In this document: in pieces, positions 45,609-53,305 of the stretch
Layout of the letters: every line of letters begins with the position of its first letter
Numbering within the stretch: the stretch's first letter is position 1
Assembly (NCBI GenBank): GCA_965203055.1
Contig: OZ241863.1
Span: 4,224,001-4,288,000, forward strand
Origin: Spirochaetia bacterium
Lineage (GTDB): Bacteria > Spirochaetota > Spirochaetia > SZUA-6 > Bin103
Length of the DNA stretch: 64,000 bases
Direction of reading: 5' to 3'
Notes under the pieces: generated by a model
Seen by the model: only the letters and a program-made list of their open reading frames with translations
Database searches by the model: none
Told to the model about the DNA's origin: nothing
Made by a program: the position numbers and the translations under genes

Positions 45609-47843
45609 ATGAGCAACACGGACACCGCATACCGGGTATTGGGCACGCGTCCCGTGCGTCACGACGGCGTAGACAAGGTAACCGGCCGCGCCAACTACGG
45701 CGCCGACTTCAGCCTGCCGGGCATGCTGCACGGCAAGATCCTGCGCAGTCCGCATGCCCACGCCCGCATCCGCTCGATCGACGCCGGCGCCGCGCAGGCG
45801 CTGGACGGGGTGTTCGCGGTGGTGACGGGCGATGACTTTCCGGCCGGCGCCGGGAGTCCGGCCGAGGTGATCATGTGCCGCGGCCACGTACGCTATCAGG
45901 GCCACGCCGTGGCCGCGGTGGCGGCGGCCACCCCTGCCATCGCCGACCAGGCGCTCGATCTGATCAAGGTGGACTACGAAGTCCTGCCCCACGTCACCGA
46001 CGTCATGGAAGCGGCGCGCGGCACGGTGATCATCGATCCCGAGCTGCGCACCGACGGCGACGAGGCGGCGCCGCTCTCCAACATCTCCAACACCGACCTG
46101 TTCGACGCCGGCGACGTGGCGGGCGGGTTCCGGGCCGCGGACGTGATCATCGAGCAGGAGTTCGACAGCGCCACCATCCACCAGGGCTACATCGAGCCGC
46201 ACGCCTGCGTTGCCCGCCGCACCGAGGAGGGTCAGATCCTGCTGTGGGTCTCCAGCCAGGGCCACTTCGCCATCCGCGACCTGACCGCGGCGCAGCTCGG
46301 CATCGGTCCGTCGCAGATCAAGACGATTCCCGCCGAGATCGGCGGCGGCTTCGGCGGCAAGACCACGGTCTACCTGGAGCCGGTGGCGATCCGGCTGGCC
46401 GAGAAGTCGGGCCGGCCGGTGAAGATGGTGATGTCGCGCGCCGAGGTGTTCACCTCCAGCGGCCCCGCCCCCGGCAGCCACATCCGCCTCAAGATGGGCG
46501 CGACCCGGGAGGGTCGCATCACCGCGGTGGACGCCGATCTGTGGTACGAGTCAGGCAGCTTTCCCGGGCCGCTTATGGGACTGGGGATGATGTGCCTCAC
46601 CGCTCCCTACGAGATCGAGCACTACCGCATCAAGGGCTACAACGTGCTGGTCAACAAGCCCTTCATGCGTCCCTACCGCGCGCCGCTGGCGCCCAACGCC
46701 GCGCACGCCACCGAGACCGTGATCGACGAAATCTGCGAGCGGATCGGAATGGACCCGATCGAATTCCGCCTCAAGAACGCCGCCCGGAAGGGAACCAAGG
46801 CCGCCTACGGCCCGGTCTACCCCGAAATCGGGATGGTGGCGACGTTGGAGGCCGCCAAGGCGCACCCCCATTACCGCGCGCCGCTGGGCCCCAACCAGGG
46901 CCGCGGCGTGGCCTCCGGGTTCTGGATGAACATCGGCGGCGACGCCACCGCCAACATCTCGGTGCTGCCCGACGGGCAGGTGTCGCTGATCACCGGGCGG
47001 CCCGACATCGGCGGTTCCCGCGCCGCCCAGGCGATGGTGCTGGCCGAGGAGCTGGGCATCCCGGTGGACCAGGTCAACCCCTCGATCGGCGATTCCGACA
47101 GCGTCGGCATGAACGGCATCTCGGAGGGCAGCAGCACCGCCTACGCCAGCAGCATGGCGATCCACGAGGCCGCCGCCAAGCTGATCGACGAGCTGCGCGA
47201 CCGCGCCGCGCTGGAGTGGGAAGTCGACAAGGAGCAGGTCACCTGGCGGGAGGGCGCGGCCCACCTGAACGGCGCCGGCAACGGCGCCAGGGAGTCGCTG
47301 TCGCTGCGCGCGCTGGCGGAAAGCTCCTCGCAGACCGGCGGGCCGCTGGGCGCCGAGGCGGCGGTCAACGCGCGCTTCGCGGCGCCGGCGTTCGGCACCC
47401 ACATCTGCGACGTGGAGGTGGACCGGGAGACCGGCAAGGTGGACGTGGTCCGCTACACCGTGTGCCAGGACGCGGGGCGGGCGCTGCACAAGAGCTACGT
47501 GGAAGGGCAGCTCCAGGGCGGTGCCGCGCAGGGCATCGGCTGGGCGCTGAACGAGGGCTACTTCTACGACGAGCAGGGCGTGATGGACAACGCGGGGTTC
47601 CTCGACTACCGCATGCCGGTGGCCATCGACCTGCCGATGATCGAGCCGGTGGTGGTCGAAGTGCCCAACCCCAAGCATCCCTACGGCGTGCGCGGGGTCG
47701 GGGAAAACGCGATCGTGGCGCCGCTGGCGGCGGTGGCCAACGCCATCCACGCCGCCGCCGGGGTGCGCCTGCGGCAGGTGCCGATGTCCCCGCCGCGGGT
47801 GCTGGAGGCGATCCTCGCCCGGCAGCAGGCCAACGGCTCGTAA
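45609..47843 (+). CDS. Xanthine dehydrogenase family molybdopterin-binding large subunit
   Basis: KVTGRANY, LRSPHAHARI, GYIEPH, IGGGFGGK, GQLQGG, RGVGE. Confidence 0.93.
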   Translation: MSNTDTAYRVLGTRPVRHDGVDKVTGRANYGADFSLPGMLHGKILRSPHAHARIRSIDAGAAQALDGVFAVVTGDDFPAGAGSPAEVIMCRGHVRYQGHAVAAVAAATPAIADQALDLIKVDYEVLPHVTDVMEAARGTVIIDPELRTDGDEAAPLSNISNTDLFDAGDVAGGFRAADVIIEQEFDSATIHQGYIEPHACVARRTEEGQILLWVSSQGHFAIRDLTAAQLGIGPSQIKTIPAEIGGGFGGKTTVYLEPVAIRLAEKSGRPVKMVMSRAEVFTSSGPAPGSHIRLKMGATREGRITAVDADLWYESGSFPGPLMGLGMMCLTAPYEIEHYRIKGYNVLVNKPFMRPYRAPLAPNAAHATETVIDEICERIGMDPIEFRLKNAARKGTKAAYGPVYPEIGMVATLEAAKAHPHYRAPLGPNQGRGVASGFWMNIGGDATANISVLPDGQVSLITGRPDIGGSRAAQAMVLAEELGIPVDQVNPSIGDSDSVGMNGISEGSSTAYASSMAIHEAAAKLIDELRDRAALEWEVDKEQVTWREGAAHLNGAGNGARESLSLRALAESSSQTGGPLGAEAAVNARFAAPAFGTHICDVEVDRETGKVDVVRYTVCQDAGRALHKSYVEGQLQGGAAQGIGWALNEGYFYDEQGVMDNAGFLDYRMPVAIDLPMIEPVVVEVPNPKHPYGVRGVGENAIVAPLAAVANAIHAAAGVRLRQVPMSPPRVLEAILARQQANGS

Positions 47844-47847
47844 CCGC

Positions 47848-48741
47848 TTGCCGCGCGACACGCACGAGGCGCCGTTGGAACCGGGCGGCGCCGCCCGGCG
47901 GGGCGCGCGCGGCCGGCAGCGGGAGGGCGCTTCCTTCCCGGCGCCGCCGGCCAAGGTCCGACTGCCGGCGAGCTATGCCGCCGCCGTCAGCGAGATCAAG
48001 CGGCGCATCGGCACGCAGCGCCTGGGCGTGGTGCTGGCCGCAAACGAGGCGCTGGTGTTGTTGTACTGGGACGTTGGGCGGGCGATCCTGGAGCGGCAGC
48101 AGCGCTCGGGCTGGGGCGCCAGGATCATCGACCGCCTGTCCCACGACCTGCGCGCCGCCTTCCCGGAGATGCGCGGGCTGTCCGCCCGCAACCTGAAATA
48201 CATGCGCGCCTTCGCCGCCGCGTGGCCCGACCGCTCAATTGTGCAACAGGCTGCTGCACAAATTCCGTGGTCCCACAACGTGATCCTGCTGAACAAGCTC
48301 AAGGACGCCCGCACCCGTCTCTGGTACGCCCGCAAGGCGCGCGAGCAGGGCTGGAGCCGCAACGTGCTGGCCATGCAAATCGACGCGAGACTGCACGAGC
48401 GGGAGGGCATGGCGGTCACCAACTTCGCCGCCACCCTGCCGCCGGGCGACTCCGACCTGGCGGCGCAGGTGTTCAAGGACCCGTACCTGTTCGACTTCCT
48501 GGGCACCGCCGCCCCGCGCACCGAGCGGGAGATCGAACAGGCCCTGGTCGATCACCTGCAGTCGTTCCTGTTGGAACTGGGCGCGGGATTCGCGTTCGTC
48601 GGCCGCCAGGTCCTGCTGGAGGTGGGAGACCGCGACTACTACGCGGGAGACGCGCCTGGTGGACTCGCTGCCGCAGGAGCTGCGGGGCAGCCTGCCGACC
48701 ATCGAAGAGATCGAAGCGGAGCTGAACGGCCCGGAACATGA
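47848..48741 (+). pseudogene. DUF1016/YhcG nuclease with internal deletion
   Basis: LYWDVG, SARNLKYM, KDPYLFDFL, LLELGAGFAFVGRQ, then at ~48645 jumps to out-of-frame C-terminus LPQELRGSLPTIEEIEAEL. Confidence 0.85.
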
Positions 48742-48784
48742 ATGATGCGGCCTGGGATGTCTGCACTCCCGATCGACAAAGGCC

Positions 48785-49110
48785 GCATGTTCCTCCCAAG
48801 CTAGCCTACGAGCAAGACTCTATTGAGCTGCTAAAGGTGTATTTGGCGTTCGCAGAAGAATTCGAAATCCGCCCACCATACTACGTGTTTCTGTCATTCC
48901 TTGGGGTCAGAGGATGCGAATTTGGCGTTAAGAAAGCCCTCTAAACATGCTCATATCCTAGAGGAAGATATGCTGATTCTTCCGGAAGTCGTTATTCAGG
49001 ACCGCGATGAACAGCCACACCAAGCCCTGAGGAAGGCATTTTGACATGGTATGGAACTCTTTTGGGTTCATAGGATCACGGAACTACGACGATAGCGGAA
49101 CTGGAAGTCT
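48785..49110 (+). pseudogene. Relic of C-terminal part of an AlbA/Schlafen-type protein
   Basis: PPYYVFLSFLGVRG, LILPEVVI, FDMVWNSFGFIGSRNYD across shifted frames; family call from memory. Confidence 0.5.
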
Positions 49111-49312
49111 GGCTAGCACGAGAGAGCTATGGCCGCGGCACCCGTCCACCACCGAGATTAGCGACCACTCATTCACCGCCGAGCAGACGGTGGATCGTCC
49201 ATCCATGGCTCCGGGGCGCATTTCCAAAATGTAGGTTAAGTTAAGCGTCAGGCCGCTTGGTGGCCAAGCCCAAATTCCTAGTGTGAAGATGACGTTTCTC
49301 GGCGATCTTGAA

Positions 49313-50698
49313 TCACCGGTCTACGCGTTCGGCAACGGGGCTGAACGGAACCGGCGCCTGGCGATCCTCGCCGGGGCGGCCGAATCCGGCGCCGACATGG
49401 CGGTAGCGGTGATGGGCGGCGCACAGCAGCCTGAGATTGTTCGGCTCGGCGGCGCCGCCGCAGGCATACGGCACGACGTGATCGATCTGCAGCAGGTGTT
49501 GGGAGCCGCAGCGGCGCCCGCTGGTGCGGTCCACGTAGCGGCAGCGGCCCCGGTCGCGCCGCCAGACCTCGCGCTTGACCGCCGCCGGGATGGCGCGGCC
49601 GGTCACGCCGGTCTTCGCTGCCGAAGTCCGAGTCCGCGGCGGCGCAGCCGGCTGCGCGCACGCCGTCGCAGCCTGCCGGCCGAGGCGCCGCGTCTTCGGC
49701 GCCGAAGTTGCGTCGCACGCCGGCTTCGCTGCCGAAGTGTCCGGGCGGTCAGCGGCTTCGTCTCCCGGCTGCGCCGCCGCCTGAGCCGATACTTTCGCCG
49801 CCGAAGGAGCGGCGCTGTCCGCGCTGGCCTCCTGCTTCGCTGCCGAGGCAGCGAAGCGAGCCGAGGCCGGCTGCGTCTTCGGCGCCGAAGTTTGCTCGGC
49901 GCCTTTGGCCGGCGCGGCGCGCCGCCCGCTCGGCGGACGGGCCGGGTCGTGGCGGTCGAGCCCTTCCCGCACCAGCCGCGCCATGAGCTGCCCCAACGTC
50001 AGGTGCGGGTCGACGTGGGACAGGAGGCCCTTGAGCCGCTCCAAGCCGCGCCGGCACTCATCGTCGATCACCGCCTTGAGTTCCCAGCGCCCGCCGCCCA
50101 GGGGCCGCACCCGATCCGCCGGCGCCGCCAGCTCCGGGTCCACCTCGGCCAGCATCTGCATCACCTCCCGGCTGCTCTTGCCGGACGCCTGCTCCACCAA
50201 CTCCCGCCGCGCCTCCGAGTCCAGCACCGGCGCGGCCGCCGGCTTCCGCTCCGCCGGCCGCAGCGGCGCGGCGCCCTCCTGCGACTGAGCGGCAGCCCCG
50301 AACCCGGTCCCGCCCGGCGCGCTACGCGCCGCGCGCTCCTTCTTGCGCTCCTGCCGGTCGAACGCGTGCTGCAACTGCGCCGCCGCGTTCAGCGTCATCG
50401 AGCCATTCTGCAGGCGCTCGCGGACGCCGTCGACGTCCGCGCAGAGCCGCATCGCCTTGATGCGCCGCCACGCTGCGGCGTCGCTGTAACCCAGTTCGCG
50501 CACCGCGTAATCGAACAGACTCGAGAACCCGCGGCGCAAGTATAGGCGGCGCTTCTGGATCTCGCGCAGGTGGTCGATCACGACCACTTCGAGATGGTGT
50601 TCGATGCCGGAAAGTTCCTTGGTCCGCTCCAGCAGATGGTCGTCTGAGAGGGCGGATACGGTAGTGGTGACGGCCTCGTCGGAAGCATGTTGGTTCAT
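49313..50698 (-). CDS. HNH endonuclease with DUF222-like N-terminal region
   Basis: LSDDHLL, GFSSLFDY, LGYS..AAWRRI; RAIPAAVKREVWRRDRGRC, IDHVVP..GG..NNLRLLCAAHH. Confidence 0.92.
   Translation of the reverse strand: MNQHASDEAVTTTVSALSDDHLLERTKELSGIEHHLEVVVIDHLREIQKRRLYLRRGFSSLFDYAVRELGYSDAAAWRRIKAMRLCADVDGVRERLQNGSMTLNAAAQLQHAFDRQERKKERAARSAPGGTGFGAAAQSQEGAAPLRPAERKPAAAPVLDSEARRELVEQASGKSSREVMQMLAEVDPELAAPADRVRPLGGGRWELKAVIDDECRRGLERLKGLLSHVDPHLTLGQLMARLVREGLDRHDPARPPSGRRAAPAKGAEQTSAPKTQPASARFAASAAKQEASADSAAPSAAKVSAQAAAQPGDEAADRPDTSAAKPACDATSAPKTRRLGRQAATACAQPAAPPRTRTSAAKTGVTGRAIPAAVKREVWRRDRGRCRYVDRTSGRRCGSQHLLQIDHVVPYACGGAAEPNNLRLLCAAHHRYRHVGAGFGRPGEDRQAPVPFSPVAERVDR
49613..49890. repeat. 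Six dispersed 14-bp palindromes CTTCG-N4-CGAAG in HNH linker
   Basis: Starts 49613, 49694, 49724, 49793, 49835, 49877; each encodes xSA(A/P)K. Confidence 0.85.
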
Positions 50699-50704
50699 GA
50701 CATA

Positions 50705-50733
50705 AGTATAATCATGGAAACTACTTGAGTCAA
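50705..50733 (-). promoter_or_regulatory. Near-consensus sigma70 promoter giving a leaderless HNH mRNA
   Basis: TTGACT-N17-TATACT-N6-ATG, no SD. Confidence 0.75.
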
Positions 50734-50808
50734 TTTTTCGGGCCGGAATATGCCACCTGCCGGCGTGACTCGGCGGCGCATTTCCAAGCGGTTTGACCAA
50801 TGACTCCT

Positions 50809-50827
50809 TACTCTTATTTTAAGAGTA
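50809..50827. promoter_or_regulatory. Operator palindrome upstream of membrane protein-wHTH operon
   Basis: TACTCTTA-TTT-TAAGAGTA. Confidence 0.7.
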
Positions 50828-50860
50828 TACGGTATTCGAGAGCAATAGGAGGGTAGCGAG

Positions 50861-51433
50861 ATGACCAATACCGACAGTCTCCGGGAAGACATCGCGTACG
50901 TGCGGGCGGCGGCCGAACGGGCGGACACCGGCACCATCCCGTCAATCTGTCTGCTGTGGGCGGTGATCGGGCTCTGCGGGGGCGTACTGGCCGACTTCGC
51001 CGCCGACTCCCGCTGGGTGGGCCGGTTCTGGCTGGCGGCGGCGCCGGCCGGTACGTGCCTCTCCCTGTGGCTCGGCTTCCGCGCCGGCCGTCGGGACGGT
51101 CAAGCAAGTCGCCGCACCGGCGTGCGCTGGGGCCTGCACTGGTTGGCGTTCATGGCCGCCGGGGCGCTCGGCGCCGCCCTGGTGGCGGCGGGGCACCTGC
51201 AGTGGTCCGGGTTCGGCTCGCTCGTCGCGCTGTTCCTGGCCCTGAACTACGCCCACGCGGGCTTCTACCTGGACCGCCGGCTGCTGCCAGTCGCCGGCGT
51301 GCTCGGTACCTGCTATCTGGTGACGTTGTTCGTGCCGGGGTATCAGTGGACGCTGGCCGGCGTGCTCATGGCCGCGGCGCTCGTCTGGCAGGCGATCCTT
51401 GGTGCGCGCCAGCGCGATGCCCGCCGATCCTGA
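50861..51433 (+). CDS. Six-TM hypothetical membrane protein
   Basis: AGGAGG RBS; LREDIAYVR then about 6 hydrophobic segments. Confidence 0.85.
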   Translation: MTNTDSLREDIAYVRAAAERADTGTIPSICLLWAVIGLCGGVLADFAADSRWVGRFWLAAAPAGTCLSLWLGFRAGRRDGQASRRTGVRWGLHWLAFMAAGALGAALVAAGHLQWSGFGSLVALFLALNYAHAGFYLDRRLLPVAGVLGTCYLVTLFVPGYQWTLAGVLMAAALVWQAILGARQRDARRS

Positions 51434-51740
51434 CATTCCGGGACTGGAGGAGCTGGCGGCGCTGAACGGGCTCCTGCAACATCGGGTTCGATTGGCGATT
51501 TGCGTTCTGCTTTCGAAGCACGACGCGATGTCGTTCAGCCGTCTGAAGCAGGTCCTCGAAGAGAAGGACGGCAGCCTCGGTACGCACCTGCGCAAGCTGG
51601 AAGACGCCGGTTACCTGACGATTGACAAGACCTACCGCGACCGGCGGCCGGTGACTTGGTATCAGTTGACCGCCGCCGGCCAGCAGCGATTGGAGCGGCA
51701 CATCGAAAATCTGATGCGTCTGATCGGGCGCGCCCGGTAA
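51417..51740 (+). CDS. Winged-helix regulator (MarR/ArsR-like HTH_34)
   Basis: HRVRLAIC, SFSRLK, DGSLGTHLRKLEDAGY, TWYQLTAAG. Confidence 0.9.
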   Translation: MPADPDIPGLEELAALNGLLQHRVRLAICVLLSKHDAMSFSRLKQVLEEKDGSLGTHLRKLEDAGYLTIDKTYRDRRPVTWYQLTAAGQQRLERHIENLMRLIGRAR

Positions 51741-51763
51741 CGGCGGGAGGCTCCGAAGGCCGC

Positions 51764-53305
51764 TTACAGGTAGTTGAGGGTGGGGAGCTCGGCGGCGCGG
51801 CGGGGGTTGAACTTGCGGTCGCGGTTGACCGGGTTGTGGTAGCGCAGGACGCGCTGGGGGCCGGCGGCCTCCGGCAGGCGCAGCACGGTGGTCGGGCGGG
51901 TGGTGGTGACCAGCCAGTCGATCAACTCGGCGCGCAGCTCCTCCACCGCGGCGCGGTGCTGCGGCAGCAGGGCCAGGTTCTCCTGCTCCCACGGGTCGGC
52001 CTCCAGGTCGTACAGCTCGGCGAAGCCGCGCTCCTCCCACTCCGCGCCGAAGCGGGCGAACATGCCGGCCGGGTAGTGCACGTAGCGGTAGCGGCCCTTG
52101 CGCACGCTCTTGCTGAACGCGAACTCGGTCACCGCGACGCGGCGCACGGCGCCGCTCCCGCCGCGCAGCAGGTGGCCCAGGTCGTGGCCGTCGCCGGTCT
52201 CCATGGCGTCCACTCCGGCCAGGGCGCAGGCGGTGGCGGCGAAGTCGACGCTCTCCACCAGCTCGCCGGCCACGTGACCGGCGGGAAAGCGGCCCGGCCA
52301 GCGCCAGATGAACGGCACCCGGGTAATGGCGTCGGAGCAGATCCCCGGCGCCTTCTCCATGATCCCGAACTCGGCGGCGTAATCGCCGTGGTCGGACGAA
52401 TAGACCACGATGGTGTCGTCCGCCAACCCGGCGTCATCCAGGAACTGCAGAAACTCGCCCACCGCATGATCGACGTGGCTCACGTTGCCCAGGTAGCCGT
52501 GCAGCTTGCGCCGGCGCCCGGCGGCGAAGGTCCGCGGCTCGAACAACTGCCAGTCGCCGGTGCGCCAGCGCCGCACCGCGGCCTGGAAGTGCGGCGCCTT
52601 GCCGTGCAGGTCGTGGTCGGCGTTGGGCGGCAGGGTGAGGGCCTCCTGGTCATAGAGGTCCCAGAACCGCTGCGCCGGCGTGTAGCACTGGTGCGGCTTG
52701 GGGAAGTTGGCCTGCAGGAAGAACGGGCGCCCGGCGTCCGCGCAGCGGCGCATGAAGTCGATGCCGGCGCGCGTCAGGTAGCCTTCCTGTCCATCCTCGT
52801 AGCTCACCTTGCTCGGGCGCGCGTCGCAGGTCTGGCGGCCGGCGGCGCCGAACTCCCGCATCGCGCCGTGATCCTCCAGCTCGGTGAGGCCGCGTTCGGC
52901 CAGGTAGTCGGCGTACTCCGCCGAACGCCCGCCGATGCTGCTGCCGCAGGTCTCCAGGAAGTAGTCCACGTCATCCTCGACCCAGTACTCCGGGCAGTGG
53001 ATCTTGCCGACGGCGCCGGTGCGGTAGCCGTAGCGGCGCAGATGCCCGAACAGAGTGGGCAGGCCGCCGGGATTGGGACCGCTCAGGCCGTAGTAGCCGT
53101 GGTTGTGGCAGTACTGGCCCGACAGCCAGCAGGTGCGGCTCGGGGTGCAGATCGGGTTCTGGGTAATGGCGTTGTCGAACCGCACCCCCTGCGCGGCGAG
53201 GCGGTCCAGATGCGGCGTGCGCGCCTCGGGGTGGCCCTTGTGCCCCAGCGCCTTGGCGTGATGCTGGTCGGAGAACAGCAACAGAATGTTGGGACGGCTG
53301 CTCAT
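51764..53305 (-). CDS. Sulfatase (Cys-type)
   Basis: PNILLLFSDQH, CTPSR, VGKIH, SSDHGD. Confidence 0.95.
   Translation of the reverse strand: MSSRPNILLLFSDQHHAKALGHKGHPEARTPHLDRLAAQGVRFDNAITQNPICTPSRTCWLSGQYCHNHGYYGLSGPNPGGLPTLFGHLRRYGYRTGAVGKIHCPEYWVEDDVDYFLETCGSSIGGRSAEYADYLAERGLTELEDHGAMREFGAAGRQTCDARPSKVSYEDGQEGYLTRAGIDFMRRCADAGRPFFLQANFPKPHQCYTPAQRFWDLYDQEALTLPPNADHDLHGKAPHFQAAVRRWRTGDWQLFEPRTFAAGRRRKLHGYLGNVSHVDHAVGEFLQFLDDAGLADDTIVVYSSDHGDYAAEFGIMEKAPGICSDAITRVPFIWRWPGRFPAGHVAGELVESVDFAATACALAGVDAMETGDGHDLGHLLRGGSGAVRRVAVTEFAFSKSVRKGRYRYVHYPAGMFARFGAEWEERGFAELYDLEADPWEQENLALLPQHRAAVEELRAELIDWLVTTTRPTTVLRLPEAAGPQRVLRYHNPVNRDRKFNPRRAAELPTLNYL

Follow-up and report, generated by a model that had tools for sequence, protein, structure and literature searches.

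Our analysis of a 64,000-nucleotide (nt) stretch of the genome of a Spirochaetia bacterium (contig OZ241863.1, positions 4,224,001 to 4,288,000; hereafter the window, whose numbering is used unless the genome is named) centres on a ~1.6-kb repeat element whose sole gene encodes an HNH nuclease. Six short interrupted palindromes lie in frame within the part of this gene that codes for a disordered linker, and the constraint on the nucleotides of their arms is, as far as sequence comparison can tell, very probably real. Divergent homologues keep the arms through rare T-ending codons despite unrelated spacers, which supports a constraint acting at the nucleotide level.

Each unit has the core TTCG-N4-CGAA, usually extended to CTTCG-N4-CGAAG, and reads in the coding sense, on the minus strand, as (N)CT TCG NNN NCG AAG, giving the peptides TSAPK, ASAAK, PSAAK, TSAAK, TSAPK and TSAAK from unit 1 to unit 6 (Table 1). 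The exact sequence CTTCGNNNNCGAAG occurs four times in the window, always in the linker (at 49613, 49694, 49724 and 49877); shuffled versions of the window held 0.15 exact motifs on average, and four were reached in none of 100 shuffles. With one mismatch allowed, two further units appear in the linker, at 49793 (TTTCG...) and 49835 (...CGAGG). The initial annotation of this DNA had described six in-frame units at 49613-49890, spaced by 81, 30, 69, 42 and 42 nt, two of them perfect and one extended into a longer hairpin, all lying in a disordered linker and separated by unrelated sequence, and this description stands in every part. Four units are exact and two carry one mismatch, at precisely those spacings; CTTCGGCGCCGAAG, at 49694 and 49877, is fully self-complementary; unit 2 belongs to a perfect 11-nt inverted repeat (49834-49844/49847-49857) and forms a 10-bp hairpin in the minimum free energy (MFE) fold; and the linker, residues 258-368, is predicted to be disordered by AlphaFold2 (AF2), with pLDDT values of 30-40. 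The spacers are unrelated to one another, because the direct-repeat families of the linker are all centred on the units and Tandem Repeats Finder detected no tandem repeat there. Units 1 and 5 have a 23-nt stretch in common (96% identity), and the position occupied by AAA in unit 3 is AAG in 28 of 30 paralogues. A perfect 16-nt palindrome, GCGCAGCCGGCTGCGC, also lies in the spacer between units 5 and 6 (49642-49657), with a related piece in another spacer; Ala/Pro-rich, GC-rich coding sequence yields palindromes readily, which calls for caution.

The motif belongs almost entirely to the element. In the 4.56-Mb genome, 215 of the 254 exact motifs are inside element copies, the remaining 39 are mostly ordinary F-x-x-E codings in another frame, and composition-matched palindromes with permuted arms occur only 0-11 times. 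A genome-wide palindrome family of the kind of repetitive extragenic palindromes (REP) or miniature inverted-repeat transposable elements (MITE) was rejected on these counts.

The codons that build the arms are partly rare ones. In long open reading frames (ORFs) with a third-position GC content (GC3) of at least 0.8, ACT accounts for 3.3% of Thr codons, TCG for 30% of Ser, GCG for 47% of Ala, CCG for 67% of Pro and AAG for 94% of Lys. Among 1810 other long ORFs, NCN codons preceding TCG end in T in 280 of 2781 cases (10%). For comparison, 50 further loci were taken from 14 other genomes, with units defined by the peptide x-S-x-x-K alone. In a first set of 22 copies with 63 units, the first codon was NCT in 49/59 units, against 291/3235 elsewhere in the same genes; Thr was ACT in 36/38 units (59/509 elsewhere), Ser was TCG in 60/63 (225/675) and the fourth codon was NCG in 54/58 (1683/3235). 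Where copies and window protein share 53-63% identity, 123 of 151 units still had a T at the end of their first codon and 82 had perfect arms, whereas the T-ending four-fold sites of the window copy in the folded domains were retained in 8 of 35 comparisons (Fisher p=8e-11, with kin that are not independent). Four-fold sites of conserved residues in the domains were 55-61% identical, against 36% expected by composition. The initial annotation had argued that the peptide does not demand palindromy, that the constraint might act on DNA or RNA, and that the case to look for was homologues keeping the peptide while losing the palindrome through synonymous change; the arms are instead kept at 50-60% identity, by means of rare NCT codons.

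The shape of the conserved segment leads in the same direction. Over 200 distinct units, conservation sets in and breaks off at the boundaries of the arms (C 0.79, T 0.83, T, C, G 0.95 on one side of the centre and C 0.93, G 0.93, A, A, G 0.92 on the other), and the flanks are uninformative. In 34 distinct linkers, CGAAG stands exactly 9 nt downstream of 97 of the 144 CTTCG pentamers, other offsets being rare. The residues found at position 1 (T/P/A/S) are exactly the set encoded by NCT and those at position 4 (A/P/S/T) exactly the NCG set, and even Asp, Val and Ile at position 1 are mostly T-ending (GAT 7 vs GAC 2, GTT 4 vs GTG 4, ATT 3). Covariation between the arms is uninformative, the Ser and Lys codons fixing them, and the association between the centre pair (G..C 68, C..G 36, G..G 65, C..C 5) can be explained equally well by avoidance of Pro-Pro.

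These data bear directly on the most conventional alternative, a conserved peptide [T/P/A]-S-[A/P]-[A/P]-K, acting as a modification site or as a DNA-contacting motif in a basic tail, whose codons would be identical by common descent from one ancestral module. Ser and Lys indeed hardly vary, Ala or Pro mostly occupies the third position, PA is preferred over PP (36 to 5) and 138 of 144 exact occurrences are in frame 1. Nevertheless, positions 1 and 4 swap residues freely as long as the codon remains NCT or NCG, respectively, not one of the 139 peptides of the form [TPAS]-S-x-x-K in the other long ORFs is coded as the palindrome, and common descent would have to preserve the T of the units far better than the T-ending sites of the domains. 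The codon counts thus largely exclude a constraint on the peptide only, and we regard this explanation as very unlikely. A further site of possible synonymous constraint, seen in the same comparisons, is the Thr codon at residue 37 (in the stop-to-stop frame), within an N-terminal TTTV stretch, which is ACT in all five comparable divergent homologues.

Variation among the 30 near-complete copies of the same genome shows the same contrast at shorter evolutionary distance. Arms have a nucleotide diversity of 0.030, loops of 0.062, spacers of 0.097 and folded domains of 0.063. The spacers look neutral, because their three codon positions are about equally variable (0.11, 0.086 and 0.093), and third positions in arms are 2.4-2.6 times less variable than other third positions (Mann-Whitney p ~0.03). 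Parsimony steps, counted on a tree built from domain columns, amount to 0.45 per site in arms, 0.96 in loops, 1.63 in spacers and 0.83 in domains. The initial annotation had proposed comparing synonymous sites among paralogues; third positions change by 0.58 steps in arms, 1.53 in spacers and 1.37 in domains. Variants found in more than one copy show a stronger deficit in arms (ratio 0.28) than those confined to a single copy (0.54), which points to selection in propagating lineages.

The arrays also turn over by whole modules. The number of units, which the initial annotation had suggested comparing among paralogues, does vary, from 2 to 8 per copy; units most often stand 81 nt (31 cases) or 42 nt (8 cases) apart, distances equal to 27-residue and 14-residue modules. 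Among 40 copies in the genome we distinguished 22 linker architectures, with a linker length that is a multiple of three in 36, and the linker grows and shrinks by 42-nt and 81-nt modules. Three partial copies (genome positions 4150814-4152291, 473037-473882 and 3066056-3066569, as delimited by the ends of high-scoring segment pairs, HSPs) carry unit-to-unit deletions, with junctions at units 1/3, 5/6 and 1/5; the units thus also serve as short homologies for deletion, since the junctions fall on two units. In two of the 30 copies, the window copy included, a GG-to-TT double change has completed the 11-nt inverted repeat at 49834-49857, which otherwise matches at 9 of 11 positions; the change looks like a templated quasi-palindrome mutation. 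Invertible cassettes were considered and rejected: no spacer is inverted in any copy, and the sole minus-strand matches come from a 16-nt self-complementary stretch.

Such turnover raises the possibility that the palindromes maintain themselves without any function for the element, template switching correcting the arms and repeat slippage duplicating or deleting modules, so that units would be continually renewed while Ser and Lys codons pin the arm sequence. The GG-to-TT change is a signature of templated mutation, and the unit-to-unit deletions, the many architectures and the depletion of single-copy changes in the arms are all expected under this explanation. We nevertheless consider it unlikely. 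At 5 bp, the arms are very short for template switching to work efficiently, a rare T would not be kept against GC pressure in 81% of units at 50-60% identity by correction alone, and the stronger depletion of shared than of single-copy variants points to selection in the propagating lineages.

Selection could in principle act on the messenger RNA. Each unit might fold into a short hairpin with a 5-bp stem and a 4-nt loop, or self-complementary units might pair over long distances. Such structures would slow ribosomes, set mRNA stability or mark sites of cleavage that separate the N-terminal part from the nuclease part, which could for instance limit the amount of full-length nuclease. The sense strand of the linker does fold better than its shuffles (z -3.6), its MFE fold pairs units 1 and 5 as a 14-bp duplex besides the hairpin of unit 2, and conserved complementary arms suit RNA as well as DNA. 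However, single hairpins are weak, and the 14-bp duplex requires two GCGC-centred units, whereas position 9 of unit 1 is G and not C in 12 of 30 paralogues. The antisense strand folds equally well (z -3.8), as any palindrome would, and degenerate units show no preference for G-U-compatible changes. The arm sequence is moreover fixed throughout the family with no covariation, a comparison that the coding constraint limits. We therefore view a role in the mRNA as rather unlikely. A scan of 47500-52500 against Rfam returned only two sub-threshold microRNA matches attributable to chance.

The explanation that we favour, and which may well be correct without reaching an even chance, is that the units constitute an array of double-stranded DNA sites for a dimeric, two-fold symmetric protein. 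The two 5-nt complementary arms, their fixed 4-nt distance and their constraint are observed, as is the confinement of the units to one element family. The arrangement, 2-8 inverted repeats per copy in 42-nt or 81-nt modules, is also that of the site arrays of ParB, SopB and KorB. The putative binder would be the N-terminal region of the element's own protein, encoded immediately upstream of the array and modelled as a ribbon-helix-helix fold plus a helical part with helix-turn-helix-like, weakly ParB/KorB-like motifs; binding there would keep the nuclease on its own copy, or would throttle or block its own transcription.

Proteins with ribbon-helix-helix or ParB/KorB-type folds bind as dimers to short DNA sites that are inverted or repeated, and the models of the N-terminal region show a middling resemblance to both. 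AF2 models, built with family alignments, contain confident helical domains at residues 12-126 and 160-250, followed by the disordered linker and an HNH domain of moderate confidence. Within the second domain, strands 197-201 and 204-207 and helices 213-226 and 235-249 make up a small module, and, of the 50 VIA-align rows listed for the N-terminal model, 22 match residues 202-256 to ribbon-helix-helix DNA-binding domains, including TraM (3omy_B, Z 6.1, rmsd 2.5, 48/50 residues), PutA (2rbf_A, Z 4.8) and omega (2bnw_A, Z 4.1), values that are low in absolute terms, for a small domain. Residues 32-189 match the DNA-binding domains of ParB, KorB, Spo0J and VirB at Z 4.3-5.7 in the N-terminal model and, together with SopB, at Z 4.8-6.6 in the full-length model (ParB 6s6h_B, Z 6.6, rmsd 3.1, 97 residues; KorB 8qa8_A, Z 6.6, and 1r71_A, Z 6.0; 1vz0_A, Z 5.3); at this level, Z can reflect common helical arrangements. 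The likely DNA-reading motifs AAWRRIKAMRL, GKS[ST]R and GRWELKAVID show almost no variation among copies that carry units. Core TTCG-N4-CGAA units number 2-8 in each of the 37 AAWRR-type copies listed, and the 10 copies of an AAGRRIG../GRYELK clade have 0-2 exact motifs each; that motif change tracks unit number is suggestive, given that it involves one evolutionary split and counts made by different definitions. On these models, the element's own N-terminal region is a possible, still doubtful, candidate for the reader of the units.

Several observations weigh against the array of DNA sites. The motif is absent from the promoter and from the element ends, the places expected for an operator or a transposition site, and unit spacing tracks module sizes, not the DNA helical repeat. 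Subfamilies without any unit (L043-L046 and L050) are nonetheless multi-copy, and at least two motif peptides are present in only 30 of the 149 best representatives of the N-terminal family, more distant ones having none; the array is accordingly lineage-specific and dispensable, since unit-free subfamilies stay multi-copy and distant relatives are without motif peptides. The structural matches are middling, with Z below 8, and Foldseek found no significant match for either model (E >1). The better-than-shuffled folding of both strands suits an RNA role equally, and the depletion of single-copy changes in the arms could be produced by a mutational process. Finally, all unit counts come from related sequences and their p-values overstate the case, although the contrast of the arms with the diverged spacers and with domain third positions is large despite this kinship. 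Outside the ORFs there are 11 exact motifs, mostly in fragments of neighbouring element copies, and a two-mismatch look-alike upstream of the -35 box was discarded for lack of conservation.

More speculative, and unlikely on present grounds, is a special form of this idea in which the array is a translated landing pad, the DNA sites of the nuclease lying within the DNA that encodes the next stretch of the same protein. Coupled transcription and translation would then allow the nascent N-terminus to be caught by its own gene copy while the HNH domain is still to be synthesised, so that a selfish nuclease would be made to act in cis or would silence itself. The linker would in that case exist mainly as DNA, its peptide being a by-product. 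Alternatively, the units might be sites that the HNH nuclease of the element recognises or cuts, similar to type II restriction sites, with breaks in the linker driving gene conversion among copies or starting the copying of the element. The interrupted-palindrome layout and the homogeneity of copies in the genome (~90% identity) would fit, as would a PADLOC match to a type II restriction enzyme; this match is weak (E 0.004) and covers the generic HNH motif only, cutting five or six sites per copy would be costly, and no protective methylase is linked to the element. We judge self-cleavage to be highly improbable.

Table 1. Features of the element copy in the window, with the basis of each assignment.
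Feature	Position	Strand	Description and basis
Repeat element (~1.6 kb), one copy	49213..50797	minus	common HSP ends near 49213 and 50797 (blastn, own genome)
HNH gene	49313..50698	minus	ATG at 50698 (MNQHASDE...), stop 49313-49315, 461 aa; ORF list and translation
Promoter-like TTGACT-17 nt-TATACT	50705..50733	minus	sequence
N-terminal region	49949..50665	minus	residues 12-250; AF2 models and VIA-align neighbours
Beta-alpha-alpha (ribbon-helix-helix-like) module	49949-50113	minus	residues 196-250; AF2 model
Disordered linker with six units	49601..49954	minus	residues ~249-366; pLDDT 30-40
Unit 1	49877..49890	minus	ACT TCG GCG CCG AAG (TSAPK); self-complementary 14-mer
Unit 2	49835..49848	minus	GCC TCG GCA GCG AAG (ASAAK); one arm mismatch; within inverted repeat 49834-49857
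Unit 3	49793..49806	minus	CCT TCG GCG GCG AAA (PSAAK); one arm mismatch (AAA)
Unit 4	49724..49737	minus	ACT TCG GCA GCG AAG (TSAAK)
Unit 5	49694..49707	minus	ACT TCG GCG CCG AAG (TSAPK); fully self-complementary
Unit 6	49613..49626	minus	ACT TCG GCA GCG AAG (TSAAK)
HNH nuclease motif	49400..49513	minus	Pfam PF01844
13-nt direct repeat TTGGAAATGCGCC, 3' copy	49215..49227	minus	exact
13-nt direct repeat TTGGAAATGCGCC, 5' copy	50775..50787	minus	exact

The element (Table 1) is present in many copies. A blastn search of its own genome gave 66 HSPs, corresponding to 30 copies longer than 1300 nt at 88-94% identity and ~35 fragments, which together make up 1.4% of the genome. The family is present in 20 of the 23 other genomes searched of the same taxonomic family, often in dozens of copies, and in none of the 17 genomes searched from the other families of the order. 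Copies 90-92% identical to that of the window were found in G011, a genome of another genus according to its labels (e.g. G011:C1:1002482-1003912), and genomes of the window's own genus have copies only 48-59% identical; this hints at a recent transfer of the window's subfamily between lineages. Parts of the element also appear in contigs of sequencing runs labelled sponge metagenome or marine metagenome. The best run shares of its sampled words were 0.48 and 0.43, for runs with coded organisms, and up to 0.36 for sponge-metagenome runs. None of the 22 runs listed was an RNA run.

The protein has an HNH motif near its C-terminus. Pfam PF01844 matches residues 430-467 of P0001 with 27.4 bits (cut-off 21.4), HNH families of the PHROGs match the protein down to E 1.3e-9 through the HNH motif alone, and the Cys pair and the D-H...N...H-H catalytic residues are conserved, C386, C397, D406 and H407 being invariant and N421 nearly so in 19 family members. 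The protein is not an IscB, the corresponding NCBIfam model reaching 21.9 bits against a cut-off of 175. Pfam has no family matching residues 1-256 at E<=10; the N-terminal family nevertheless comprises 11,313 representative proteins at E<=0.001, and 15 of 20 distant members scanned have an HNH match. At least 2140 proteins count as copies of the family.

Upstream of the gene, a near-consensus TTGACT-17 nt-TATACT is followed by a conserved ATG ~7 nt past the -10 box, and TATACTTAT..ATG is retained in family members only 50-60% identical; a promoter ending 7 nt before the ATG suggests a leaderless-type mRNA. Just past the stop codon, at 49253-49265 on the minus strand, a small interrupted palindrome, CTTGG-N3-CCAAG, is present in the consensus of the copies too and could be a terminator-like hairpin or another kind of site near the 3' end of the element. 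The direct repeat TTGGAAATGCGCC is not a simple target-site duplication, because most other copies extend upstream beyond its 5' occurrence; there, repeated sequence runs for a further 40-350 nt, with discrete classes of 5' end and a constant 3' end. In ~18 copies this extension is a mosaic of repeated fragments, as in L004 (1124-1500), which lies upstream of another copy in the same genome. A piece of L004, ...NNNEGTKIYNRFHDLYETDPRIIELRELHSAMDRA, may resemble the C-terminal part of type IIG/BREX-type DNA methyltransferases.

Cis-acting sites in coding DNA and arrays of inverted repeats are both already known kinds of features. An array of palindromes that rare codons preserve, set in the disordered linker of a high-copy HNH element with a single gene, is undescribed in the literature that we searched; neither palindromes in HNH linkers nor a mobile element of the ribbon-helix-helix-HNH type turned up there, most subscription journals being outside this search. 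With arms that are held while the flanking linker drifts, the element offers a clean natural case of a second, non-protein code in a coding sequence. Should the units bind the protein that the element encodes, they would reveal how an HNH element with a single gene, of a kind whose spread is poorly understood, controls or targets itself, and a similar argument could be extended to the mycobacterial DUF222-HNH repeats (REP13E12), which are remotely similar. The case also warns annotators that the DNA coding for a disordered linker can itself be strongly selected.

Among known systems, CRISPR arrays come to mind, as they likewise consist of short palindromic repeats with unrelated sequence between them, and the initial annotation had considered a repeat-spacer layout or insertion scars. 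Neither fits. CRISPR repeats are non-coding and ~23-50 nt long, with unique spacers; by contrast, the units of the element are 14 nt, lie within an ORF and are translated in frame, and their spacers are common to paralogous copies and conserved in 30 of them. A phage origin of the spacers finds no support either, the whole element matching nothing in phage or plasmid collections. Rickettsia palindromic elements show that palindromic DNA can be tolerated within reading frames; they are ~100-150 bp long and occur in frame in many unrelated genes, whereas the 14-nt units are essentially confined to one gene family. Ribbon-helix-helix proteins (TraM, omega and the CopG/Arc type) are obligate dimers that read short repeated sub-sites. 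The beta-alpha-alpha module modelled at residues 196-250 aligns with their domains at low Z; it differs in being part of a 461-aa nuclease fusion and in having its putative sites in its own coding sequence, not in a promoter.

We know of no linker palindromes in REP13E12. The DUF222-HNH genes to which these repeats belong nevertheless have much in common with the element: they are multi-copy, with a helical N-terminal region and a C-terminal HNH motif, and they form a dispersed repeat, as do the 30 near-full copies and the fragments of the element in 4.56 Mb. The window protein has no Pfam DUF222 match, and two of 20 distant relatives match DUF222 (PF02720) below threshold (22.4 and 21.2 bits, cut-off 24.4); this suggests that DUF222-HNH is the closest named kin, by a remote relation only that falls short of Pfam membership. 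In Mycobacterium tuberculosis, REP13E12/HNH endonuclease/DUF222 is listed as a repetitive element (PMC10589994, citing Gordon et al. 1999).

The closest parallel for the array itself is sopC of the F plasmid, in which a 43-bp repeat occurs 12 times and always contains a 16-bp inverted repeat to which SopB binds (PMC3177203). Both systems use tandem modules of ~42-43 bp with one short inverted repeat each, and the DNA-binding domains of ParB, KorB and SopB are among the best structural neighbours of the model of residues 32-189. The two differ in that the array of the element lies in a reading frame and is translated, and in that its palindrome is 14 bp long with a free 4-bp centre and diverged spacers. 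Unlike SopB, the protein of the element ends in an HNH nuclease, and its binding to the units is putative.

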